The notes under the pieces are model-generated. The model was not told where the DNA came from and ran no database searches. It saw only the letters and a list, made by a program, of their open reading frames with translations. 43,218 nucleotides of DNA from a virus, in IMG/VR virus record IMGVR_UViG_3300045241_000059, positions 1 through 43,218 of that record. One strand, 5' to 3'. This document shows positions 2,657-41,999 of the stretch, in pieces. Each line of letters starts with the position of its first letter. Within the stretch, counting starts at the first letter, position 1. The position numbers and the translations under genes are program-made.

Positions 2657-3556
2657 TCAATATAGTGGCCAGCTCCAGTTAGCCGCCGTCGGCGTCGGAT
2701 AGGGGTAAGCCACCGAGACCGAACTGGGCATCCGGTGGATCAGGGTCGGCGAGGGCTTGTCCGCCCCCGACGCGCGCGTGAGCGCGTCCATGAACGTCGC
2801 CATGTCCTCCGCGTATGGGCTCCCTTTGAGCGCCTTCCATTGCCAGATCATGCCGAGCTTCAGCAGGCGCTCGTCGAGCACGAACGTGTCGTTGTCATTC
2901 TGAAAGGCGTCGCCGCGGCCGCCGCTGTAAAGGTTGACGCAATCTTTGCTCAGGTAGTTGAACTGCGCGGTGGTGGGCACGCTCACCGCGCCGGTCGCCA
3001 CCCACAAGGTGGGGCGGTCGGCACGGTCCTGCGCGAACAAGCCGGTGGCGGCGCTGGTGTGAGCGATGGCGACCCGCCAGACCGTGCGGTCGTCGGGGTC
3101 GTAGACCACGTAGCCGACGAGGTAGTTGTAGAGGTTGTGCCAGGGCACGCCGCCGCCGTCCAGGACCGGGTGAATGTGCATGTCGGCGAAGATGATCCAC
3201 TCGCCCCAGGCGTAGTTGTAGCCGCGCAGCCGTCGCTGCAGCCATTCGTCGGCGCTGGAGATGAACATCATCGGTTGAACGGCGCTGGTCGAGCGCCAGA
3301 CATTGCTGTTCAGCAGCATGCGCTTATAGTTGGCCGGCAGCGGGAACCTCTCGGACGCGCCGTCGCCGGTGAATGTCACGGTCTCCATCAGCGCCCGCCA
3401 CTCACGGCTGTCATAGGCGATCCGCTGCGCCATCTCGTTGGCCACGCCACGCAGCTCAAGTTGCGTGCGCGGGTCGGTGACACTGCCAAACAACGTCGTC
3501 GGCACATGGACGCCGACGAAGCCGCAGACGTCTTTGACGACCGACAGAATTGTCAT
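2657..3556 (-). CDS. Putative head-tail adaptor / tail tubular A-like virion protein
   Basis: 299-aa ORF whose start overlaps the upstream stop (ATGA-type). It lies between the capsid block and the nozzle-like gene. Confidence 0.5.
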   Translation of the reverse strand: MTILSVVKDVCGFVGVHVPTTLFGSVTDPRTQLELRGVANEMAQRIAYDSREWRALMETVTFTGDGASERFPLPANYKRMLLNSNVWRSTSAVQPMMFISSADEWLQRRLRGYNYAWGEWIIFADMHIHPVLDGGGVPWHNLYNYLVGYVVYDPDDRTVWRVAIAHTSAATGLFAQDRADRPTLWVATGAVSVPTTAQFNYLSKDCVNLYSGGRGDAFQNDNDTFVLDERLLKLGMIWQWKALKGSPYAEDMATFMDALTRASGADKPSPTLIHRMPSSVSVAYPYPTPTAANWSWPLY

Positions 3557-4293
3557 GCTGGCATCAGGTCCGCAGTGGGTTGCTTACTGGCGATCGTGTT
3601 GGCCAATTGCAACAGCGTCTTGCGCGATGGGTTGCCGATCGGGCGCGTGCCGGTCTCCTTGAAGATGAAGTCCTTGATTTGCAGGTTCGACATTTCATCG
3701 AACTGCGAGCCGTCGGTGTCGTCGCGCTTGGCTTTCAGCACTTCGTTATCGGCCTCGAGCGCCTGCGTGCGGGCGCGCAGCGCCTCGAGCTCGGTCTGCA
3801 TTGCGATGTTGGGCACCAGCGCCTTGGCCTCTTCGATGAAGTCGATCGCCTGGTTTTTCCAGTCGCGTCCGCCTGGCCCCAAATTCTTGAGCTCCTGGCC
3901 GTCGATGTGCGCGAGCTGCTCGACCGTGTAGACGTTCAGCGCGCGCAGCTCGGCGCGGCGACCTTCGGACAGGAACGGCACGCGTTCGAGTAGCGTTCCG
4001 CTCTTGGTTTGCGCCGCCTGCTGCTTGAACTGCAGGTACTGGCGCGGAAAACGCTCTGCGTAAGTCACCTTCAGCTGTGCGCCGGTGAACTGGTCATCTT
4101 TCCAGTGGGAAAACTCTGTGGCTGGGAAGTGCTTAATGTCGGTTCGTCCTGGCGTGCGAATTTCGCAGATCTCGACGTCGTCACAGATCAGGCGGCCAGC
4201 TGTTTTCGACTTGGCCTCGTTGGGGATGGCGATGTGCTTGAAGATTGCCACCAGGTCGTCGTCGGTCCCGGTCGGGCGTTTGTTGAGTGCCAT
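3553..4293 (-). CDS. Virion-module hypothetical protein with a coiled-coil region and a SAP/Rho_N-like C-terminal segment
   Basis: 246-aa ORF with ATG start. It has a central coiled coil (ELEALRARTQALEADNEVLKAK) and the C-terminal segment LQIKDFIFKETGTRPIGNPSRKTLLQLA. Confidence 0.55.
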   Translation of the reverse strand: MALNKRPTGTDDDLVAIFKHIAIPNEAKSKTAGRLICDDVEICEIRTPGRTDIKHFPATEFSHWKDDQFTGAQLKVTYAERFPRQYLQFKQQAAQTKSGTLLERVPFLSEGRRAELRALNVYTVEQLAHIDGQELKNLGPGGRDWKNQAIDFIEEAKALVPNIAMQTELEALRARTQALEADNEVLKAKRDDTDGSQFDEMSNLQIKDFIFKETGTRPIGNPSRKTLLQLANTIASKQPTADLMPA

Positions 4294-9633: not shown

Positions 9634-11958
9634 TTAGATGATTCCTGGTGGTGCCGTGCGCTGGGCTGCTTGAGTTTGGCGGAACTGCTGCGCAGCCATT
9701 CGCTCGCGCTGCCGCGCCGCCATATCGCTCTGTCGCGCCTGCGACTCCTGTTGCCGCATGCCGGCCTCTTGCTGATTGATATGGAAGTCGGCGACCCGCT
9801 CCATCATGTCGGCCTGGTGCTGCTCCTGTTCGTGCGCGGCCTGCTGGTCGGCCTGGAAAGCTTTGGCGGCGTTGTCGCCCTGCTTGCCTTGCAGCTTCAT
9901 GCCCTCGAGCCGCTGACTGTTCGCGAGCTTGAGCTTCTCCCAGTTGTCGCGCATCACCAGTTCTTGCTTCTTGAGCGCGGTATCGGCCCGGTCCTTCTCG
10001 GCCTGGCGCTGCTGCTTCATCTGCTCGATCTGAATGGCCGTCTTGTTGGTGGCGGTGGTCGGATCGTCGCCGCGCGGCTGGTCGGCCTTCGTCCGCATGG
10101 TTTCGGTCAGGTCATCGATCGCGCCGTCGAGTGCACGGCCGGCGCGATATGGCGCGCACGCAAATTTGAGCACCTCGCCGCAGAACTCGCCGGTGGCCGG
10201 ATCGGCCGCAAACATCTGGGTGAGCTGCGGCAGCAACTGGCTCAACATCCCCATGAACTCGGCGCGGCTTTGTTTCTCGGCCTGCTCGTCCACGATGATG
10301 GTGCTATCGGTCTCGATGTCGAGCACGAACGAGCGCAAGCGGTAGTCGTGCAGGAACGTGAGCACCTGATCGATGTTGGGGTGCTGGCCAATCTTGGCGA
10401 TAGTGTCCTGCCCGCTTTGAATTTGCTGCTGGGCCTGCGCGAGCATTTGCTTGGCCTGGTCGGGATTGCTTTGCGCGAGCTGCTGCGCTTGCGGCGTATT
10501 CTTCGCCTGCTGGAGCGCTTGCGTCTGTTGGGCGACCTGCCGTTGGACCAGCTCCACGGCCCGCTGTTGCATGACCTTCGTCGGCAATTGCGTCTGTGAC
10601 ATTTCGACGATGGTGGCGTCTTTGAACTTTTCGCAGATGATGTCGCCGGTGATGCAGACGAGATCGCGCGCGATCCGCGCCAATTCGTTTTGCTTGTCGC
10701 GCACGCGGCTCGAGCCATACGAGCTCTTGAGCGACTGCGCGCCATAGGTCTCGCGCGGGTCGGTCGAGCCGCGCATAATGTCGCTGAGCCCAACGATCTG
10801 GTAAATGTCGTTGATGACCTGGGTGCGCAGGTCCATGCACGTCTTGATCACCTCGGAGATCATGTCGATCGGCAGCCAGACAATGATCTCCTTGGTGCCG
10901 CCAAACGTCGCCCAGTTGGCAATCGGCACCAGCACGCGGCCAGGCGTTTTCATCTTGATCGCGGCCTCGACCGCCTCGGTCTTCTCGGCATCGCCGCTCG
11001 GATAAAACCCTTTGGCCTCGAGCACGTCGGAGAGCGCGTGGATTTTGCCAGTGAGCTTGTTGATCTCCTCGAGCTGGTCCTTGTACTGCAGCACGTCGGG
11101 CACCGGGATCAGTGAGCCGCGCTGAACGCTGCCGTAGGCCGGCTTCGGGCACGGGAAGTATCCCTGCAGGTCGAGGTGCGGGTCGTCCTCGTCGAGGATG
11201 TCTTCGCAGCCCTCCGAGACCCACACCACGCGCCGTGACGGCTTGTCCCAAATCTCCCAAAATTTTGCGCGCTCGCGGTTATCGGCGCCGCCGACCTCTT
11301 TGGCGTCGCGGTCGACCTTGTATTCGGCGGTCTGATAGGCGTCGCCAGAATACGTGGAAAACCGCTCGCGGGCTTCTGCGCGCGTCAGGTAGCTCGCGGC
11401 TGCGACCCACGTCACCTCGGGCCACGAGCGCGAGATGCTGTGCAAAAAGTCGCGGCGCTGCTTGACGTCGAAGCAGACCCGCTCGCCGTCGTAGTAGGAC
11501 TTCTTGCTCTTGCCGCCCTCGTAGCGGCACCACACCACGCCGCGGCTGACGAGCGCCAGGTCGTCGCGCACCTGCAGCATCGTCTCGTTGATGTAGGCGA
11601 GATCGAACGCCACCGTGGCGCAGCGCTCCAGCACCTCGCTCGCCTGCTGCACGACCGGCCGGCGATCTTTGAATTTCGGGACCACCACGGGGATCGGCGC
11701 CTGCGCGTAGATCGCGGGCTTAATGACCTCCATATTCGCCCAGAACATCTGAAATTCTTTGTCACGCCCCATCTGGGCGAGGCGCTCGAGGTTTGCATAC
11801 TGCTTGTCGATGCGGTCGCAGTGGTCGTTCCATTTCTCGAACGCGTCCTCGCTTTCCTTGAGCAGGTTGAGCCAGGCCAACGACTTCGTCGGCTCGAGTT
11901 GCGGGTTGTACTCGAGGTCGTCGTGGCGAATGTCGTCGTTGACGGGCTTATCGGTCAT
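9634..11958 (-). CDS. Portal protein
   Basis: 774 aa counted from ATG 11958, which forms an ATGA overlap with the TerL stop. N-terminus is MTDKPVNDDIRHDDLEYNPQ. The protein is large with a Q-rich coiled-coil C-terminus and sits directly after TerL. Confidence 0.8.
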   Translation of the reverse strand: MTDKPVNDDIRHDDLEYNPQLEPTKSLAWLNLLKESEDAFEKWNDHCDRIDKQYANLERLAQMGRDKEFQMFWANMEVIKPAIYAQAPIPVVVPKFKDRRPVVQQASEVLERCATVAFDLAYINETMLQVRDDLALVSRGVVWCRYEGGKSKKSYYDGERVCFDVKQRRDFLHSISRSWPEVTWVAAASYLTRAEARERFSTYSGDAYQTAEYKVDRDAKEVGGADNRERAKFWEIWDKPSRRVVWVSEGCEDILDEDDPHLDLQGYFPCPKPAYGSVQRGSLIPVPDVLQYKDQLEEINKLTGKIHALSDVLEAKGFYPSGDAEKTEAVEAAIKMKTPGRVLVPIANWATFGGTKEIIVWLPIDMISEVIKTCMDLRTQVINDIYQIVGLSDIMRGSTDPRETYGAQSLKSSYGSSRVRDKQNELARIARDLVCITGDIICEKFKDATIVEMSQTQLPTKVMQQRAVELVQRQVAQQTQALQQAKNTPQAQQLAQSNPDQAKQMLAQAQQQIQSGQDTIAKIGQHPNIDQVLTFLHDYRLRSFVLDIETDSTIIVDEQAEKQSRAEFMGMLSQLLPQLTQMFAADPATGEFCGEVLKFACAPYRAGRALDGAIDDLTETMRTKADQPRGDDPTTATNKTAIQIEQMKQQRQAEKDRADTALKKQELVMRDNWEKLKLANSQRLEGMKLQGKQGDNAAKAFQADQQAAHEQEQHQADMMERVADFHINQQEAGMRQQESQARQSDMAARQRERMAAQQFRQTQAAQRTAPPGII

Positions 11959-14156
11959 AGCCGCATCTCCCCAGCGCGCGGCTCGGGCGGCGGCGGGATG
12001 ATCACGCCCGTGGGCTGTCGGCTCGGCTTCGCCGTATGGCGCAGCCTCGGACGCCAGGCCATCGCCAGATAGCGGAAGGCATCGCAGTTTCTGACGACTG
12101 CGCCGTTGGCCAGGGAAAAACACTTAGCGTCGGGGACAGTCAGGCACCAGACATCATCGTGATAGTCCAGTTCTGTTACGCCTGCGATGGTTGGCTGCCT
12201 TGCAGTTAACACCGCAATAGACTTGCGAATGGCCGCTCTTGCGGACCAGAGCCATGAATGCCTTTCCACACTCAGGGCATGCTTTTCGCTTACGTTTCCA
12301 CTTAGTCCATCCCTTTGATCGCTTCGCGTGCCGGCTATGCCAAAGACGACCAGCCTCGGATCGGTGCCATGCCGCCGCGGCGTCGCGGGCGGGTTGACCG
12401 AATGTTCGCGGCTTCCCCTTACTGGTTCGCGACAAGTGCTCCGATGCCTCAACGCATTCGAGGTTGACCAGGGCATTGTTGGCCGGATCGGCATCGCGGT
12501 GGTGAATGTGACACCCTTCGGGAATAGGGCCAAAAGCAAGAGCCCAAACATCGCGATGGAGCTTCTTGCCACCGCGCGAATAGTAGACATCGCTCGGCCA
12601 CAGGCGGTAAAGCCCGCCATCGAAATACTGCGTGAGAGGGTCAAGGACGATCGGATCGGCGTATTGGGTGTGAGGGACGCGGCGGATTGCCAGCCGTCGA
12701 CCGTCGCGAACAAATGATCCGGCGTGCATTTTACCGAAAGTCCGTCGGCGAACGTGACCTCCACAAGTGGGGCACTTCTGCGCGTGATCCTCGGGTTCTG
12801 ATACGGCTTCCAGCCACATGGCGTTAGGACCTCTCCGGTTGGGGGGAGGTCTTTTATCTGATGCATTCCGTAACGTGTCAAGACGGCGGTATCACCGGTG
12901 AAGCACGCGTGACTGGTCCAGTCGTGCAGCGCGCTCTGGCGGAAGCATTTTTTCTCGTCGTTCCATTCGCGGCGATAGAGCTCGAGCGCATTGAGGCCGC
13001 TCAGCTCGCAGCGCGGGTGGAAGACACACAGCGGCAGCGTTTGGCGCGCAGCGTTGATGCCGTCCTCGACGGTGGCGTGCCGCACCAGCACGGGGCGCAA
13101 GCCCATGCTCTGCATGGTCTCGACGCGGGTGCGGCCCGAGCCCCATTCCTTGATCTTGGCGTCGTGCGGAACGTAGTCGACGCCGTGACGCCAGCCATGC
13201 TCCTGCTGGCGCTGCTCGATCACATCGCGATAGTGCTCGAGCCCAACGCCAGAGGCACAGTAGCAGTCGAGGATCAGCAGTTGACCGTTGCCGGCTGGCG
13301 TGAACCACCAGATCGAGGTGTCGTCGGTCACCCCAAGATCCCAGGCGCGATGCACCTCTTGGCCAGGCGGCACCTGGAACTGATCGGTGACGCGGCTCTC
13401 TTCGCGTACCGTTAACATTTCATGCGCGTAATAGGCGCCGAGCACGGCGGCGTTCCAGGACACGAGATATTCGGACTCGAATTGCGCCCTGCCGACGTCA
13501 AATCCGTAAAGCGATTGGTACTCCTCGAGCGCTTCGTCGAGTTGCTCCTCGCTCAGCACGCCGGTGTCGCGCGCGGTGAGGGATTGGTAAAACCAGCCCT
13601 TGGTCTTCGCGGCGTACTGCGCCAGGTCGTAGGCGTGGTTCCTGCCTCTCGGCGTCGTAATAAAAATCGCGGTGCCATTGTTCTCCTGCAGCATCGGCCG
13701 GTGGTAGGCCCACGCCGACGGATTGGAGAGCGCGTACTCCGAGTAGGTGATCAACTTTGGCGACGCCCCGACGGTGCTGTCGTATTTGTCCGAGCCGATG
13801 ATCTGCCAGGTGCTCCCGTTCTTTGCGAATCGGATAAACATCTCGTTGTCGTTGGTGGTCTCGCGCAGCTCTGGCGGAAATGCTTCATCGATGCGCCGCT
13901 TGCCGGTATGCGGGTTGACCGCGCTCCAGATCGCTTTGCGCCCTTGTGCGTATTCGGGCAGGCAGTGCCACGCGTTAATTCCTGTGTGTCGATGCATCTC
14001 GACCGCGGCGAAATGCATGGCGACTTCGTCCTTGCCGGCGCGCCGGTGCCACACCGCCATCGCACGCTTGCCGCCGGCCATGAGGTAATCCCATAGGCCT
14101 TCCTGGTACGGGCGCTCCGTCCAGTTATGGGGCAGCTGTAGGCGCGGCCGATCCAT
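11955..14156 (-). CDS. terL: Terminase large subunit interrupted by an intein (733-aa precursor, 460 aa after removal)
   Basis: The N-terminus carries an ATPase motif (AVWHRRAGKDE). The nuclease-domain sequence HDWTSHA...CDAFRYLA is split by Hint splicing blocks. Confidence 0.9.
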   Translation of the reverse strand: MDRPRLQLPHNWTERPYQEGLWDYLMAGGKRAMAVWHRRAGKDEVAMHFAAVEMHRHTGINAWHCLPEYAQGRKAIWSAVNPHTGKRRIDEAFPPELRETTNDNEMFIRFAKNGSTWQIIGSDKYDSTVGASPKLITYSEYALSNPSAWAYHRPMLQENNGTAIFITTPRGRNHAYDLAQYAAKTKGWFYQSLTARDTGVLSEEQLDEALEEYQSLYGFDVGRAQFESEYLVSWNAAVLGAYYAHEMLTVREESRVTDQFQVPPGQEVHRAWDLGVTDDTSIWWFTPAGNGQLLILDCYCASGVGLEHYRDVIEQRQQEHGWRHGVDYVPHDAKIKEWGSGRTRVETMQSMGLRPVLVRHATVEDGINAARQTLPLCVFHPRCELSGLNALELYRREWNDEKKCFRQSALHDWTSHACFTGDTAVLTRYGMHQIKDLPPTGEVLTPCGWKPYQNPRITRRSAPLVEVTFADGLSVKCTPDHLFATVDGWQSAASLTPNTPIRSSLTLSRSISMAGFTACGRAMSTIRAVARSSIAMFGLLLLALFPKGVTFTTAMPIRPTMPWSTSNALRHRSTCREPVRGSREHSVNPPATPRRHGTDPRLVVFGIAGTRSDQRDGLSGNVSEKHALSVERHSWLWSARAAIRKSIAVLTARQPTIAGVTELDYHDDVWCLTVPDAKCFSLANGAVVRNCDAFRYLAMAWRPRLRHTAKPSRQPTGVIIPPPPEPRAGEMRL
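12087..12905 (-). mobile_element. Intein (273 codons) in terL
   Basis: Block A is CFTGDTAVL, with Cys1 at 12905-12903. Block B is VKCTPDHLF. Blocks F/G are DVWCLTVPD and NGAVVRN, with the terminal Asn at 12089-12087 and a +1 Cys. Confidence 0.85.
12154..12819 (-). CDS. HNH endonuclease ORF nested in the intein, in the -1 frame
   Basis: 221 aa with GGKKLHRDVWALAFGPIPEGCHIHHRDADPANNALVNLECV and CPECGKAF...YCGVNCKAANHRRR. It has its own ATG at 12819, and GGAGAGG (12836-12830) lies 10 nt upstream. Confidence 0.75.
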   Translation of the reverse strand: MWLEAVSEPEDHAQKCPTCGGHVRRRTFGKMHAGSFVRDGRRLAIRRVPHTQYADPIVLDPLTQYFDGGLYRLWPSDVYYSRGGKKLHRDVWALAFGPIPEGCHIHHRDADPANNALVNLECVEASEHLSRTSKGKPRTFGQPARDAAAAWHRSEAGRLWHSRHAKRSKGWTKWKRKRKACPECGKAFMALVRKSGHSQVYCGVNCKAANHRRRNRTGLSR

Positions 14157-16583: not shown

Positions 16584-16847
16584 CTAGTCGGTTCGTCCGC
16601 CCTGGTAGCTCATATCCATGCCGCAGCGCCGACACTTGCCGCTCAACCAACCGTTCTTGCTCGAGATCAGCACCCGCTCGTGCCGGCGGCAGGCATTGTG
16701 CCGCCGGCGCATCGCTTGCAGTCTGCGCACCCAAACCTGCGACTGCTCGTCCAGGCGCTCGATCTCGTCCTCGTTCAACCACAACACTGGCGTGTCGTAG
16801 ATTTCATGCAGGGACTTTTTCGTCGCCACCTTCCGCGCTGCCCTCAC
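16584..16847 (-). CDS. Hypothetical protein with a C-terminal CxxC pair
   Basis: 87-aa ORF whose GTG start overlaps the recT stop. Confidence 0.4.
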   Translation of the reverse strand: MRAARKVATKKSLHEIYDTPVLWLNEDEIERLDEQSQVWVRRLQAMRRRHNACRRHERVLISSKNGWLSGKCRRCGMDMSYQGGRTD

Positions 16848-18019
16848 GACACCGCCTCCAGCTCCTGCTTGCGCAGTGCCTCGAGCGTGCGCTCGAGCAC
16901 GTCACCCGCAATGGAAGCGTCACGGGGGAACATGTCGGCCAAGGTGGGGAGGAACTTGTCCCACACCGCAATGGCCTGCGCGCTGGTGGAGCAGTCCGCC
17001 AGCCTGTCGGAGATGTATGTGAGATACATCTCCGAGTCCTCGGGCGTTGGCGCTTGCTTGTTCCGATCAAGGAACGACGGGATGCCGTCGTAAGGCCCGT
17101 CATGTGCCTCCAGATCTTGCATCGCTGGCGGCTTGGCGGCGGTCTCCTTGAGGATCAGCTTTTTGCGCGCGCTCTCGATGTTGGGCAGGATGCGCTCGTA
17201 GATTTTTGGCGCAGCTTTTTTGACCTCGTCCAGATGCGCGTAATTGGCGCGCTGCCACTGATCGATCTCGACCAGCGTTTGCGCGCCATTGAGTGCCGCG
17301 ATGTAGCTGGCACCCCAGGCGATCATGCGGCGCCATGGCGTGTCGCCTGCCGGCAACGGCAACTCGCGCGGCCCCACCTCGCCAGTCACCGGGTCGTGCT
17401 CCGGTGGCCGTTCGACCGTCACCGGCGCGATCGGCGAGATCTCGCTCGCCGGCGCCGGCTGGTTTGAGTTGGCGGCCTCGGCCGGAAACTCCTCCGGCGA
17501 CCAGACGCCGAGCATCAGCTCGGGCACATGGCGGCGCGCCCACACGCGGCTCCCGTGATACATCAGCTGCTGGTCGGGCTGGGTCTTCCAGACCGCGGCA
17601 TTGGTGCGGGCATCGCGCAGGATCACTGCCACGGTGCGCGCCGCCTTCTCGCCGCGGACCTTGCCACTGACCGTGATCGTGCGGGTCTCGCCAGTGCCCG
17701 CGTAATCAAAGCTCAGCCGCTCCTCGAGCCCGCCGCGCGAGTTGACGACAGCGGCAACGAGCTTGCCGCCATACATCAGCTTGCCTTGGATGACGCTACA
17801 CTCCTGCGCCACCGCGAACGGGTCCATCTGCCAGCGCACCGCCTGCTGGATCACCATCAGGCAGTCGGCTGGACTGTCGCGCAGCGCAACCGGCACCAGC
17901 TTGCTGCTCGCCATCATGTTAGCGAGCTGCATCGCCTCCGCGAGCGTGGTCGGCACCAGCCCCTGTGCGACCGGCGGCGCCGGCGGCACGTAGGGGGCAA
18001 CATTGTTTGTCGCGGTCAT
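16844..18019 (-). CDS. recT: RecT-family single-strand annealing recombinase with a long C-terminal extension
   Basis: The N-terminal half (MQLANMMASSKLVPVAL...DPFAVAQECSVIQGKLMYGGKLVAAVVNSRGG) is RecT-like. It is paired with a YqaJ exonuclease upstream. Confidence 0.7.
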   Translation of the reverse strand: MTATNNVAPYVPPAPPVAQGLVPTTLAEAMQLANMMASSKLVPVALRDSPADCLMVIQQAVRWQMDPFAVAQECSVIQGKLMYGGKLVAAVVNSRGGLEERLSFDYAGTGETRTITVSGKVRGEKAARTVAVILRDARTNAAVWKTQPDQQLMYHGSRVWARRHVPELMLGVWSPEEFPAEAANSNQPAPASEISPIAPVTVERPPEHDPVTGEVGPRELPLPAGDTPWRRMIAWGASYIAALNGAQTLVEIDQWQRANYAHLDEVKKAAPKIYERILPNIESARKKLILKETAAKPPAMQDLEAHDGPYDGIPSFLDRNKQAPTPEDSEMYLTYISDRLADCSTSAQAIAVWDKFLPTLADMFPRDASIAGDVLERTLEALRKQELEAVS

Positions 18020-38433: not shown

Positions 38434-40572
38434 CTACCTCAGCTTCTCCCAGCTGTGATCATAGTCGAGCGGATTGCCTCTGAGATAGCGACGGGGAATG
38501 CCATCAGCAAAGTCGGTCACGATCTGACCTTTGTCTGGGGCGACAGGATCCTCGGGCTTGGTCTTCCAGGCAGTTACCGGCTGGTTGAGCCGGCGCTGGA
38601 TGGCCTCGTAGTCCTCGCGCACAGCGTTTCCAAAGTCTTGCAGCGCGGCGCGGAATTCCTTTGGGTTGGTTGCCTGGTTCAGGCGCGTTTGGGCGGCGGA
38701 CGCTTTGGCGCCCTCGATGTTGGAAATTTGGCCACCGCCCTTGAGAATATCTTGATAGACGCCAAGGAAGGCTTGGTTTTTGATTTGGTCGATGCGCAGC
38801 GCCAGCGCGCCGGCTTCCGTTGTCGGAATGAGCGACTTGGCTTTGCCGATGAGACCGAGGGCCTCACCGGATTTCACGGCTGGATTGTCGGCGATCTCTT
38901 GGATGTGCCTGGCCATCCGACCGAAGATTGGCGTAGCTTTCTCGCCGACCGCCATATCGGCCTCGATCTTTTTGGCTTGCGCTGCATCCCATAGCTTGGC
39001 CGGCACGCCAGGATTTGGTTCCGGCGTTGGAATGCCGATGCGTTGCGGACTGGCGGCGCTTCCCCACCGCTGGTCGACGAGGCCATAGGGAGTATTGACG
39101 ACTGGCGATGTCTGCCCGGTCGGCACTCGCGGCAATTCGTATTCCTTCCCGCGCAGCTCGAGCTCTTTTTCCGCCGAGGCTCTGGCCGCGACCTGATTGG
39201 CCGCCTTCGCAGTGGTGACGCGGCCTAGCTGCGCTTGATACTGCTGGTCGAGGATCTTGTCGTTGAAGGTGCGCTTGGCCGCTTCCTGCTGTGCGATCGG
39301 CTGCCAGATGCGCTGGACGTCAGGGTCGCCAGGGAACATGGCCATGCGCTGCAAGGCCTGTAGCTCGCGTGGCGATTGCGGGGTCGGCCGCGGCGGCTTC
39401 GGGTCTGGCACATAAAGCTCGACCGCCTCGGTCGGCGGGCGCGCAACGATCGGCTGATAGGCATCTTGCGATGCCGTTTGCGTCGGCGCGGCTTGTTGTG
39501 GCGCCGGCGGCGCGGACGGGATAGCAGTAAACGCATCGTTGATGCGTGCGGCGGGGGCCGCACCAGGCGGTGCCGATGGGATGTCGGTCATGGTCGGGGA
39601 AGCGCCGCCGCCGGTCAGAGCGGCCATGCGCTGCGGCGCCGTAGTTGGCACAAAGTCCGGCGTATTCTGTCGCGTGGCGGCAAGGCGGGCAAGCTGTTCG
39701 GGACGCTCTTGCTGTACATAAGTTTCGGCGCTGCCAGGTAGCTGGCCGGCAACGTTGTAGCGGCCGGAGGCGACACCGCGAGAGGCAACACCGCCGGAGG
39801 CATTACCGGTCGGCGCAAAGCCTAACGCCTGCCCACCGGCATCGGACCCGCGTAAAACCGGCGACAGGATATCGAGCGGGGCTGCCCCTCTTCCGAACGT
39901 AGATGCCGGATAATAGCCGGTCGATCCAGGGCCGGTGTATTGACGTGTCACCTGCGCCAGCGGCTGGTCGCGCGCGGCAGCGCGGTTCATGATTGTTTCG
40001 GCAATAATCTGCTGTTCTTGCGGGTTGTCCCCGACTTCGCCTCTGGCGATCGTCAGGATACGGTTCGCCAGAGCAGGGTTGGCCTGGAGCTCGGCAATTT
40101 GCCGATTGCGGTCATACACTGGGCGTGGCGGCGGCAGCGGAATGCGCCCCTGACCTGCGGGCACTTGCGGCGGCGGCGTCATAACTGTCGCGATCTGATC
40201 GCGCATCGGATTGGGAGCGGCGGGCTCGTCGGTCGCCGTCGGCGTCAACGCTGCCGTCCTGACGGGCGCGCTTGCGGGCGGCGTCTCGTCCGTTGGCTCG
40301 TTGTCTGCGGCCACGGTGGGAGGATAGGCCTTCGTTGCCTCCTGGCCGAGTGCTGCGGTTCGTGCCGCATCACGCCTGTCAAGGTCGCGCTGCGCTGCGA
40401 TGTCGTAGATGCTCTCGCCCACAGAGGTGAGGCCTTCACCGAAGTTTTTTGGATACGGCGAGCGCTTGCCAGCCAGCGCTTCGACGATCTTGCGGCGCGA
40501 TAGCAGCGCGTCGTAACTGCCAGGCCCGGTGGGTTGGTTGCCGAAAAAGGCGTAGGACAGCTCGTTGGCCAT
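38434..40572 (-). CDS. Internal virion protein with a SleB-like cell-wall hydrolase domain
   Basis: TIARGEVGDNPQEQQIIAETIMNRAAARDQPLAQV resembles the SleB/Hydrolase_2 core. 712 aa with P/A-rich linkers. Confidence 0.6.
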   Translation of the reverse strand: MANELSYAFFGNQPTGPGSYDALLSRRKIVEALAGKRSPYPKNFGEGLTSVGESIYDIAAQRDLDRRDAARTAALGQEATKAYPPTVAADNEPTDETPPASAPVRTAALTPTATDEPAAPNPMRDQIATVMTPPPQVPAGQGRIPLPPPRPVYDRNRQIAELQANPALANRILTIARGEVGDNPQEQQIIAETIMNRAAARDQPLAQVTRQYTGPGSTGYYPASTFGRGAAPLDILSPVLRGSDAGGQALGFAPTGNASGGVASRGVASGRYNVAGQLPGSAETYVQQERPEQLARLAATRQNTPDFVPTTAPQRMAALTGGGASPTMTDIPSAPPGAAPAARINDAFTAIPSAPPAPQQAAPTQTASQDAYQPIVARPPTEAVELYVPDPKPPRPTPQSPRELQALQRMAMFPGDPDVQRIWQPIAQQEAAKRTFNDKILDQQYQAQLGRVTTAKAANQVAARASAEKELELRGKEYELPRVPTGQTSPVVNTPYGLVDQRWGSAASPQRIGIPTPEPNPGVPAKLWDAAQAKKIEADMAVGEKATPIFGRMARHIQEIADNPAVKSGEALGLIGKAKSLIPTTEAGALALRIDQIKNQAFLGVYQDILKGGGQISNIEGAKASAAQTRLNQATNPKEFRAALQDFGNAVREDYEAIQRRLNQPVTAWKTKPEDPVAPDKGQIVTDFADGIPRRYLRGNPLDYDHSWEKLR

Positions 40573-41999
40573 TACGTTGCCCTCATGATCGAGCCCATTA
40601 CACGGCGCTGGTTGATGTATTTGGTGCCGCTGCGGTCAGTGCCGACTGCGCCTGGATCAACCTTCTCGACGTCCTGCGCCATCGGACCGATGTGCTGCGT
40701 GCTCGCTGGGTCGCCTTTGTAGGAGTACGTGTAGATCGGCAACTTCTTACGTTCGTCACTGTCGACGTCGCTGACGGCGAAGACCGTGCCCATCTTGTGG
40801 ATGTTCTCCTTGGCGCGGCGATCGGACAGCGCATACGCCTTGGCGACGTTGCCGCCCAACCCCAGGAGGCCTCCGAGCAGCGCTTGTTGCTGCTGGTTCT
40901 GGGCGTTGTAGTTTTGGAATTGTTGACTGAAGTTGGTGTTGATCAATCCCGCAATGTCGGTGGTCGGAATGCTGGTCTGCGGCGTGGTGACGAAGTTGGG
41001 CCGAGAGACCTGCGACCCCGACACCAGCGCATTGATCTCGTTGATGGGCTCTTGGCGCGTGGCATACTGCTCTTGCAGATAATTGGCGCGCCGCGCGTTC
41101 TCGGCGTTCAACGCCGCCTGCGCGTTCTGAGCATTCTGCAGTTGCCCAGCGTTCGCGAAGGTGCCGCGGCCGAGTGCTTGCTGGTAATTCTGTGCTTCCG
41201 CAGCGTTGGCAAACGTGCCGCGCCCTTGCGCTTCTTGGTAGGCTTGCTGTTGCGCCTCATTTTGGAATTGGGCCTGGGCCTTGGCCATCTCGGACATGCG
41301 CTGCTGTTCCGCGCCGCCCGCTGCCGTCACGGCCAGCCGCGCGTCGGTGGACTGCCTGTTAAAGTCGCTCATCGCCTGCTGGTAGGCCGGGGAGCCGTAG
41401 CGGATACCTTGATCGGCGAGCTGCTGCTCGAGGCGCGAGCGGTCGCGGTCGAGCTGTGGGCTCAGCCGACCAAAGAGCGCATCCTCGACGCGCTGGCGGT
41501 CGGCGGAAAAATTGTCGCTCGGGCCATAGCTTCGCGTGAGGTTGCCGGCGTCATCGAACGTGCTCTGCTGCGAGCCGGTGCCGCCGAACGTCGTCGCTGC
41601 ATTGGGCAGGCCGCTAATGCGCGAGGTGTCACCCGCCGCCGGCGCCTGTGACAGGTCGATAGGGTTTGCGAGCAGGTTACTAATATTGCCGCTCTGCGTC
41701 TTGGACAATGTCGCAAGATTGAGTTTTGCTCCCTCTGTTTGGTCCTGGATCGCCTGTTCGTTCGGCGTTAGCGTCTGCGTCGCCGTGAAGCGCGGGATGT
41801 TGTAGGTCTGGCCGGTCGATGGGTCGGTGAAAGTATAGGTCGACGATTGGTTGTAGGTCAGATCGCCCGTTGGCGTGCTCTGGTTGGTGTTGTTGAGAAA
41901 CGCGTTCGCAATTGCGGTCGAGACGTTAGCTGACGTCTGCGCACCGGCGACCGCAGTCGGGTTCGGCGGCTGAGGCGGGTCGGATTTGGTCGACATCAC
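40572..41999 (-). CDS. Q/N-rich virion protein with a C-terminal S74-like intramolecular chaperone domain
   Basis: Contains LSDRRAKENIHKMG...LPIYTYSYKGDPASTQHIGPMAQDVEKVDPGAV. Confidence 0.6.
   Translation of the reverse strand: MMSTKSDPPQPPNPTAVAGAQTSANVSTAIANAFLNNTNQSTPTGDLTYNQSSTYTFTDPSTGQTYNIPRFTATQTLTPNEQAIQDQTEGAKLNLATLSKTQSGNISNLLANPIDLSQAPAAGDTSRISGLPNAATTFGGTGSQQSTFDDAGNLTRSYGPSDNFSADRQRVEDALFGRLSPQLDRDRSRLEQQLADQGIRYGSPAYQQAMSDFNRQSTDARLAVTAAGGAEQQRMSEMAKAQAQFQNEAQQQAYQEAQGRGTFANAAEAQNYQQALGRGTFANAGQLQNAQNAQAALNAENARRANYLQEQYATRQEPINEINALVSGSQVSRPNFVTTPQTSIPTTDIAGLINTNFSQQFQNYNAQNQQQQALLGGLLGLGGNVAKAYALSDRRAKENIHKMGTVFAVSDVDSDERKKLPIYTYSYKGDPASTQHIGPMAQDVEKVDPGAVGTDRSGTKYINQRRVMGSIMRAT

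Follow-up and report, generated by a model that had tools for sequence, protein, structure and literature searches.

A putative HNH homing endonuclease gene overprinted on the intein of a phage terminase large subunit

Introduction

Can one stretch of DNA be read as an intein in one frame and as a complete homing endonuclease in another, and what maintains such an arrangement? The question is raised by the gene for the terminase large subunit (TerL) in the IMG/VR virus record IMGVR_UViG_3300045241_000059, a stretch of 43,218 nucleotides (nt) that we call the window. Two open reading frames (ORFs) overlap there on the minus strand, which also carries every part of the locus described below. The outer one, at 11955-14156, encodes a TerL precursor of 733 amino acids (N-extein, intein and C-extein), taken from the ORF list and supported by homologues and by a match to the PHROG terminase large subunit family. 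Nested within it at an offset of +2 (equivalently, in its -1 frame) is an ORF of 221 amino acids at 12154-12819, which Pfam HNH_3, PHROG and homologues point to as an HNH homing endonuclease.

A preliminary description, made from the sequence alone, had offered three explanations for the two open frames: a free-standing endonuclease gene overprinted inside a mini-intein, a fusion that depends on ribosomal frameshifting, or a conventional HNH intein that recently acquired two compensating frameshifts. Our comparative analysis favors the first of these, which is well supported by a conserved start codon and Shine-Dalgarno sequence and by selection that differs from frame to frame. We think it probable that the loop of a contiguous class-1 intein carries, overprinted in its -1 frame, a homing endonuclease gene of the free-standing HNH_3 type that is translated independently of the intein.

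Results

The intein occupies 12087-12905 and comprises 273 residues (TerL residues 418-690). It is of class 1, with Cys1 at its start and Arg-Asn at its end followed by Cys+1, and was delimited by its boundaries, the alignment of the spliced product, a family profile and a predicted HINT fold. Its junctions read HDWTSHA|CFTGDT and NGAVVRN|CDAFRY, with CTPDH as block B and DVWCLTVP ... NGAVVRN as blocks F and G. On one side lies the N-extein (12906-14156, TerL residues 1-417, ending in HDWTSHA), placed by alignment with intein-less homologues, and on the other a C-extein of 43 residues beginning CDAFRYLA (11958-12086), followed by the terL stop codon at 11955-11957. Removal of residues 418-690 leaves a TerL of 460 residues that aligns without gaps to intein-less TerLs of 458 and 460 residues over HDWTSHx|xDAFRYLA; the boundaries, blocks and 460-residue product given in the preliminary description are correct as statements about the sequence, and the joint with intein-less homologues is seamless. 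TerL residues ~4-418 are 57-59% identical to the TerL of Rhizobium phage RHph_I3_18 and Bradyrhizobium phage ppBjS10J-1, in which the intein-less terL region encodes HDWTSHLADAFRY at the proposed target motif. We take this motif, H-D-W-x-S-H-x-x-D-A-F-R-Y, to lie in the nuclease domain of TerL.

The residues assigned to splicing are kept across relatives. Cys1 is Cys418 of TerL, and the motif C-[FLVM]-x-G-[DE]-T around it is retained in 81 relatives; T61 and H64 of block B are invariant in the family alignment, as is N273 (N690 of TerL), and the +1 residue is Cys or Ser in all relatives (N690|C691 in the window). A search with the 273-residue TerL-frame translation found 23 proteins, 20 of which carry a precomputed Intein_splicing (PF14890) assignment, and a profile of the intein family matches 30 inteins in the PDB. 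The best of these, the Spl DnaX mini-intein (E 2.7e-7), is matched over both the block-B region and the F/G region. AlphaFold2 predicts two confident all-beta lobes, at intein residues 1-88 and 235-273, with a pLDDT (predicted local distance difference test) of 85-97, and gives residues 92-231 a pLDDT below 50. The N-terminal lobe (12642-12905, intein residues 1 to ~88) holds blocks A and B with T61-x-x-H64 and has a pLDDT of 85-97, and the C-terminal lobe (12087-12209) holds blocks F and G at 93-97. When this model was compared with the PDB by Foldseek, the top 30 matches were all inteins or HINT domains, including the Mtu RecA, Npu DnaB and Npu DnaE inteins, with template-modelling (TM) scores to the target of 0.70-0.75 (up to 0.75 for Mtu RecA) over alignments that span the low-confidence insert. 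The structural prediction shows that the two splicing lobes together form a HINT fold.

The nested ORF is recognizable in its own frame. It matches Pfam HNH_3 over residues 85-128 (12436-12567) with an E of 2.7e-14 and 53 bits, above the cut-off of 24.8, and a PHROG HNH endonuclease family at 2.9e-22; neither Endonuclease_7 nor LAGLIDADG is among the best 25 of the 28 Pfam families listed for it. The catalytic residues H88, H106, N119 and H128 and the four cysteines of a C-terminal zinc ribbon (C181-x2-C184 ... C202-x3-C206, 12202-12279, with weak matches to zinc-ribbon Pfam families) are invariant in 36 sequences, including those of the distant phages TJE1, LS06 and PAE1. The AlphaFold2 model of the protein (mean pLDDT 79.7) has an N-terminal beta-sheet, the HNH motif, helices and the zinc ribbon; comparison of the HNH profile with PDB sequences returned a spurious RING-finger match only. 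The ORF ends in a TGA at 12156-12154, within two Asp codons directly ahead of DVWCLTVP, which bears out the earlier placement of this stop at block F. A large protein collection holds 267 homologues, the top 120 of which are mostly 215-240 residues long (a few up to 317) and 58-71% identical over nearly their full length, and a profile search of 1.84 billion cluster representatives found 9,090 relatives at E<=1e-3, 1,789 at E<=1e-10 and 37 at E<=1e-30. Because most of these profile relatives start at query residue ~55-66, the first 55 residues of the HNH protein are particular to the close family.

If both frames are used, each should carry its own mark of selection. From the close family we extracted 81 inteins (73 unique, 810-873 nt), aligned their DNA and calculated column entropy by codon phase. 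In the N-terminal lobe ahead of the HNH ATG, entropy at TerL codon positions 1, 2 and 3 is 0.73, 0.56 and 1.28 bits, and identity to the window is 67% in the TerL frame and 41% in the HNH frame; past the HNH stop the three entropies are 0.63, 0.48 and 1.63 bits, and over the whole C-terminal lobe (~12087-12212) identity is 50% in the TerL frame and 30% in the HNH frame. In both lobes, then, the wobble position is the third position of TerL. Across ~12215-12695 the entropies are 0.76, 1.47 and 0.91 bits and the identities 33% (TerL) and 61% (HNH), so that variability peaks at TerL position 2, the wobble position (position 3) of HNH. In this region the HNH frame is the one under selection. Between this region and the HNH start, the 125 nt at ~12695-12819 have entropies of 0.57, 0.70 and 0.93 bits and identities of 67% (TerL) and 55% (HNH); one frame of this segment encodes beta-strands of the intein together with block B, and the other the N-terminus of the HNH protein (CxxC, CPTC). 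With all three codon positions damped, the segment is truly dual-coded. As read from the alignment, the pattern shows that the lobes are selected in the TerL frame and the stretch between them in the HNH frame. By the wobble switch at ~12215-12695 and the low pLDDT at intein residues 92-231, the TerL-frame stretch that escapes selection is ~140-160 residues long; the preliminary description was right that there is a stretch without a recognizable domain, and its estimate of about 165 residues was somewhat too long. Likewise, its "mini-intein" is an intein, but a full-length one, whose loop is a non-selected read-through of the HNH gene. This read-through linker covers intein residues ~89-232 (12210-12641) and is marked out by pLDDT, variability and the distribution of stops: its frame is kept open, and its amino acids are not under selection.

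That openness does not look accidental. Over the HNH core (~186 codons) we compared observed stops with a null in which HNH codons were resampled synonymously, a null made conservative by drawing on the codon usage of the family itself. The TerL frame contains no stop in any of the 73 unique relatives, against 2.14 expected per sequence; the probability of finding none is ~0.11 per family sequence and ~0.055 for the window. The third frame, by contrast, has 13.9 stops against 13.7 expected. The distant nested relatives (~30) also have no TerL-frame stops, with 1-27 in the third frame, whereas non-nested relatives, both free-standing and fractured, have 2-21 stops in the corresponding frame. 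These sequence comparisons show selection holding the TerL frame stop-free over the HNH gene. That only one frame relation is seen may be because this is the stop-poor alternative frame of an HNH gene, with ~2 expected stops versus ~14.

A nested gene that is translated on its own needs a start within the codons of the intein, and candidate signals are present and conserved. A Shine-Dalgarno sequence, GGAGAGG (12830-12836), falls in intein codons Gly-Glu-Val, and the start codon (12817-12819) is made of the last base of one intein codon and the TG of Cys30; the preliminary description of a complete 221-residue ORF with its own ATG and this sequence 10 nt upstream is thus confirmed. An ATG is present at the HNH start in 61 of the 73 sequences, with GTG in one more, and Shine-Dalgarno-like GGAG or GAGG lies 5-18 nt upstream of the ATG in 60 of 73. 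The Glu codon within the Shine-Dalgarno sequence is GAG 56 times and GAA 11 times. The codon ahead of Cys30 ends in A in 69 of 73, while encoding Pro, Ser, Leu, Gln and others, and because the encoded amino acid varies, this wobble base is likely fixed for the HNH ATG rather than for the intein. From the aligned sequences, the HNH ATG and its Shine-Dalgarno sequence are conserved beyond what the intein residues would need, and independent initiation is the best-supported route to the HNH protein.

The arrangement recurs widely. When the HNH ORF was compared with phage genomes by tblastn, matches fell inside the "terminase large subunit" genes of five phages, Tetrasphaera TJE1, Rhodobacteraceae LS06-2018-MD07, Clostridium phiCDHM19 and phiCD119, and Acinetobacter Highwayman. 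In the four loci inspected (TJE1, LS06-2018-MD07, phiCDHM19 and Highwayman) the HNH ORF lies at offset +2 from the terL start, and intein termini flank an unrecognizable middle in the terL ORF (CFIGSTL ... VLVSN|C in TJE1, CFAAGTL ... ILVSN|S in LS06). On contigs with homologues the two ORFs are nested in the same way, with an SU10-type portal gene downstream of them. A further 130 loci came from scanning IMG/VR and a set of contigs with one genome per species; at least 501 IMG/VR stretches encode an HNH relative, of which the best 80 were kept and examined, and almost all of these are nested. By script, 111 of the 135 matching loci are nested, meaning that no stop interrupts the frame at +1 from the HNH frame anywhere in the HNH region. 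The surrounding open frame is ~660-1,130 residues long where the contig contains all of it (mostly 700-800) and shorter where a contig end cuts it. The frame relation is constant across all 111, down to ~30% HNH identity and over a G+C content of 0.32-0.66. Hosts named in the labels of metagenome-assembled genomes (MAGs) include Bacteroides, Coprococcus, Streptomyces, Frankia, Nostoc and Saccharibacteria. No in-frame HNH was found at a terL locus among the 135.

Some of these loci bear on annotation or stand apart from the rest. The records of TJE1 (L002), LS06-2018-MD07 (L003), phiCDHM19 (L143) and Highwayman (L144) are annotated with "terminase large subunit" alone, leaving the nested HNH gene unannotated; all four are genomes of cultured phages or complete ones. 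At two metagenomic loci (L010, 1-1551, with called genes at 2-592 and 651-1361; L006, 585-2914) the gene callers retained the HNH ORF and truncated or dropped terL, and therefore the database TerL entries for the HNH-nested family are systematically broken. Three loci (L052, L055 and L056) have a match to the HNH core in frame within ORFs other than terL (open frames of 1,300-2,300 residues). In a 305-kb contig of an Acidobacteriaceae MAG, a copy at 3193-4214 (L015) has 64% HNH identity over the first ~130-170 residues and broken frames, and looks like a decaying prophage remnant.

Does the unit move? HNH identity to the window ranges from 42 to 67% while N-extein identity ranges from 20 to 67%, and the two are uncorrelated (r = 0.08, n = 65): the intein and HNH unit is far more conserved than the TerLs that host it. 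The element is missing from the two sequenced phages with the closest TerLs. Members of the close intein family (~60% identical; L063-L134 and the window) are inserted at four adjacent points within five residues of H-D-W1-x2-S3-H4-x5-A6-D7-A-F-R-Y, namely after W1 (|CSHPAD), x2 (|SHGADA), H4 (|CADAF) and x5 (TSHA|CDAFRY, the window), and distant relatives occupy the equivalent ..DH|C...N|C.D..RY site of other TerL families. Uncoupled identity, patchy presence and a fixed motif are, as judged from these comparisons, marks of a homing element. We note that allelic inteins normally share one exact point, unlike the four adjacent points here.

Relatives of the nuclease are also found in other states. 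In eight loci (L024, L029, L032, L034, L038, L039, L040 and L043) terL is fractured: an ORF with the N-terminal parts of TerL and of the intein, ending soon after block B, is followed by the HNH ORF and then by an ORF with the C-terminal part of the intein (..VYNMEV..HNF.VNGG.IVHN|C) and the C-extein. The TerL frame of the window is unbroken, unlike these fractured genes, and L025 has a single TerL-frame stop just ahead of the HNH region. In PAE1, BP10, L026, L031 and L041 the HNH gene is free-standing beside an intact terL or terS; in Acinetobacter phage BP10 (L145, related to Highwayman) and Pseudomonas phage PAE1 (L001) it stands beside an intein-less terL. This shows one nuclease family in three states, as a free-standing gene, as a gene between the halves of a split intein and as one overprinted in an intein that is contiguous.

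Several observations weigh against the reading of an active, independently translated homing endonuclease in a splicing intein. The penultimate residue of the window intein is Arg (VVRN|C, 12090-12092), at a position that is His in at least 90% of the family and Lys in a few; a penultimate Arg could slow the Asn-cyclization step. Splicing does not strictly depend on a penultimate His, and in distant relatives the residue is Ser. Of the two frames searched with Pfam, the nested one exceeded its cut-off, but the TerL ORF reached only 23.3 bits (E 6e-5) against Intein_splicing, below the gathering cut-off of 35.8; we nevertheless regard the identity of the intein as secured, because the family profile matches PDB inteins and the predicted fold is a HINT fold. 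The best PDB match of the HNH model, I-HmuI (1u3e, probability 0.95), is weak, with an E of 0.011 and a TM score of ~0.3. At the nested start, the spacer of 10 nt is on the long side, and the true start could instead be the equivalent of Met31, whose ATG (12727-12729) is built from Lys-Cys codons of intein block B and from which several database homologues (P0147, P0149, P0180 and P0290) are called. Finally, a hairpin predicted at 12824-12851, GACCUC(C)...GGAGAGGUC, would bury the Shine-Dalgarno sequence. Its stem pairs Asp-Leu codons (GACCUC) with the Glu-Val codons of the Shine-Dalgarno sequence (GAGGUC), and a second hairpin is predicted over the AUG. The mean pairing probability of the Shine-Dalgarno sequence is 0.74 in the family versus 0.53 overall and reaches 0.87 in the window, and cells of the hairpin are paired in 84-86% as against 34-52% with the partner slid. 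Covariation is no better than in shuffles, so the hairpin is inseparable from protein-coding constraint, and we offer its possible role in translational control as a lead.

Discussion

How might such a locus work? The HNH gene sits where canonical inteins hold their endonuclease domain. We propose that ribosomes translating terL read through the HNH gene and produce from it a disordered loop of ~140 residues, which the intein would tolerate, and that the intein would then splice itself out to give the 460-residue TerL. Other ribosomes would start at the ATG at 12819 and make a separate HNH enzyme of 24 kDa. During co-infection this enzyme would be expected to cut intein-less terL alleles at the same motif, and repair would copy the intein together with the HNH gene into the cut allele, completing a cycle of homing.

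Two open frames over one stretch are the typical signature of indel errors, and in the window alone an open TerL frame is no more than mildly unlikely by chance, with a probability of ~0.055. These points speak for an error of sequencing or assembly, or, as the preliminary description suggested, for a conventional HNH intein, once in frame, that recently underwent two 1-nt frameshifts compensating each other. The comparative data refute this: 111 independent loci, drawn from isolates, MAGs and viromes, all have the same offset, down to ~30% HNH identity, an in-frame HNH occurs at no TerL locus found, and the wobble pattern, together with the conserved start codon and Shine-Dalgarno sequence in the alternative frame, points to long-term purifying selection on each frame. 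We give this explanation almost no weight. Programmed -1 ribosomal frameshifting, which would yield a fusion of N-extein, N-terminal intein lobe and HNH instead of a protein with its own start, has two points in its favor: without exception the HNH frame is the -1 frame of TerL, and the window has a C_CCC_CCA in the TerL frame at 12846-12840, upstream of the HNH start codon, in a place where the HNH frame has already opened. This heptamer is unique to the window, though, and X_XXY_YYZ heptamers of the TerL frame are not conserved, with no alignment column at which more than 9 of the 73 sequences share one; RNAalifold found no consensus structure over the whole intein; the conserved ATG with its fixed wobble base and Shine-Dalgarno sequence favors independent initiation; and HNH is a stand-alone gene in the fractured relatives. 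We consider frameshifting highly improbable. Even less can be said for a group I intron carrying an HNH ORF, with the open TerL frame a coincidence: HNH genes are common in phage group I introns, but the window has no Rfam match, the flanks of the insert encode what is confidently modelled as a HINT fold with Cys1, TxxH and Asn-Cys, and the TerL frame is selected against stops, which leaves this possibility close to negligible.

It is also possible that the gene is real but does something else, or nothing. The HNH ORF of the window could be an unexpressed or inactive relic, leaving a mini-intein with a junk loop from which homing has been lost. The homing-cycle model predicts decay after fixation, the Shine-Dalgarno sequence of the window is predicted to be sequestered, and the change of the penultimate His to Arg suggests some drift; on the other side, the ORF is full length with all catalytic and zinc-binding residues intact, and the family as a whole shows purifying selection on the HNH frame and a signature of horizontal transfer. 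We think a relic unlikely. Another thought is that the protein serves as an accessory nuclease of the terminase in DNA packaging and is not a homing enzyme. Free-standing relatives do adjoin terS or terL (PAE1, BP10), and phage HNH genes adjoining cos sites and terminase genes are described in a passage of PMC3592412. Yet the closest TerL homologues have neither intein nor HNH, the HNH_3/I-HmuI type is typical of homing enzymes, and the unit moves among unrelated TerL families, always into the same motif, all of which makes a packaging role very unlikely in our view.

The preliminary description knew of no earlier case of an endonuclease gene overprinted in an intein, and on this point it has been overtaken by two preprints. 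Gosselin, Arsenault and Gogarten (bioRxiv 10.1101/2025.01.02.630785) report an endonuclease VII-like homing endonuclease in "frame 3" of actinophage inteins, some of which lie in TerL; they also describe antisense LAGLIDADG and Vsr-like homing endonucleases, and call these arrangements rare. As in the window, the frame-3 cases lie in phage genes including TerL, the endonuclease ORF shares the strand of the intein and falls between its splicing blocks, reading the stretch in frame gives an unstructured product, and the proposed origin is a free-standing homing endonuclease gene invading an intein. The nuclease is different, however, being endonuclease VII-like with its catalytic core at residues 1-67, where ours is HNH_3 with its core at 85-128 and a C-terminal zinc ribbon. 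The actinophage cases are described as rare and actinophage-restricted, whereas phages and MAGs of many phyla carry the window family, and ~125 nt of the N-terminal lobe are dual-coded in the window intein, which sets it against the frame-3 inteins. Phillips, DeSimone and Gogarten (bioRxiv 10.64898/2026.09.14.751524) describe a cyanobacterial DnaX intein with a LAGLIDADG homing endonuclease in the +2 frame, an idea that a passage of their paper credits to Gorbalenya 1998. The +2 offset, the relaxed extein frame and constrained endonuclease frame in the overlap, and the interpretation as a secondary invasion of a mini-intein are all shared with our case; the host gene there is cellular (dnaX) and the nuclease LAGLIDADG, rather than phage terL and HNH_3.

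Other known systems share part of the design. ShiLan, an HNH insertion that lies out of frame in the DNA methylases of actinophages (Arsenault et al., Genes 2025, PMC11855218), likewise hides an HNH gene in the alternative frame of an insert that is open in the host frame, but it has no splicing domains and stays in the protein, whereas the window insert comes with a complete predicted HINT domain that we propose removes it. The fractured genes of Dassa et al. (NAR 2009, PMC2677866) have split inteins parted by free-standing homing endonuclease genes of the GIY-YIG or the Vsr-like kind. Our eight fractured terL relatives resemble them in having an endonuclease gene between the N- and C-terminal parts of an intein; in the fractured genes of Dassa et al. 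the host frame is interrupted, while in the window the intein is contiguous and presumably cis-splicing. I-HmuI, from a Bacillus phage intron (PDB 1u3e), is also of Pfam HNH_3, and the model of our protein, which matches it weakly, has an N-terminal beta-sheet, HNH motif and helical region in this order; I-HmuI is intron-encoded and lacks a C-terminal zinc ribbon, whereas the window protein is intein-overprinted and has one. A search of the literature for this HNH_3/zinc-ribbon family inside TerL inteins found no description. The HNH-in-TerL intein is thus apparently a very common, previously undescribed family of a known class, the non-canonical inteins with out-of-frame homing endonucleases. 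It brings no new principle, but it widens the class and contributes start signals embedded in the intein, a segment coding in both frames and a connection to fractured genes. A bolder version, which we regard as possible but rather doubtful, is that HNH_3-in-TerL is by far the most widespread family of overprinted homing endonucleases, and a stable, long-lived state marked by 125 dual-coded nucleotides, an in-codon start and a hairpin that would hide the Shine-Dalgarno sequence and so throttle HNH synthesis or couple it to the translation of terL.

If that version is true, the HNH_3-in-TerL loci, with their fractured and free-standing relatives, form a natural series for testing the model in which the splicing domain comes first and the endonuclease invades later. 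A nuclease family with three states bears in any case on how inteins gain endonucleases. Out-of-frame endonucleases in inteins, until now reported as rare, include a family spread across tailed phages of many bacterial phyla, with cultured phages of Clostridioides difficile and Acinetobacter among the carriers. For annotation, the nuclease is overlooked under the name "terminase large subunit", and metagenome gene callers conversely truncate terL. For students of overlapping genes, the family is a large comparative set on the choice of a stop-poor frame, on start signals placed in the codons of another protein and on a doubly selected segment. Intein engineers may also find it useful that these splicing lobes seem to tolerate an arbitrary loop of ~140 residues.

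Genomic context

The terL stop codon and the likely start of a portal gene overlap as ATGA at 11955-11958, the portal protein (MTDKPVNDD...) reading from 11958; a mechanical ORF of 829 residues from a GTG at 12123 is probably an over-extension of it. The window portal protein itself had no Pfam match, while the portals of relatives carry SU10_portal. Elsewhere on the minus strand of the window Pfam identifies a RecT-like protein (16844-18019) and a Peptidase_S74 chaperone domain that closes the ORF at 40572-41999, and among ten other window proteins it found nothing beyond these two. A megablast of the window against INPHARED phages gave no match, looking for identical proteins gave none either, a tRNA search of its 43,218 nt found none, and no Rfam family reached its gathering score; the window looks like a phage or prophage without a close sequenced relative. 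It also contains many long, spurious alternative-frame ORFs, as expected at ~62% G+C.

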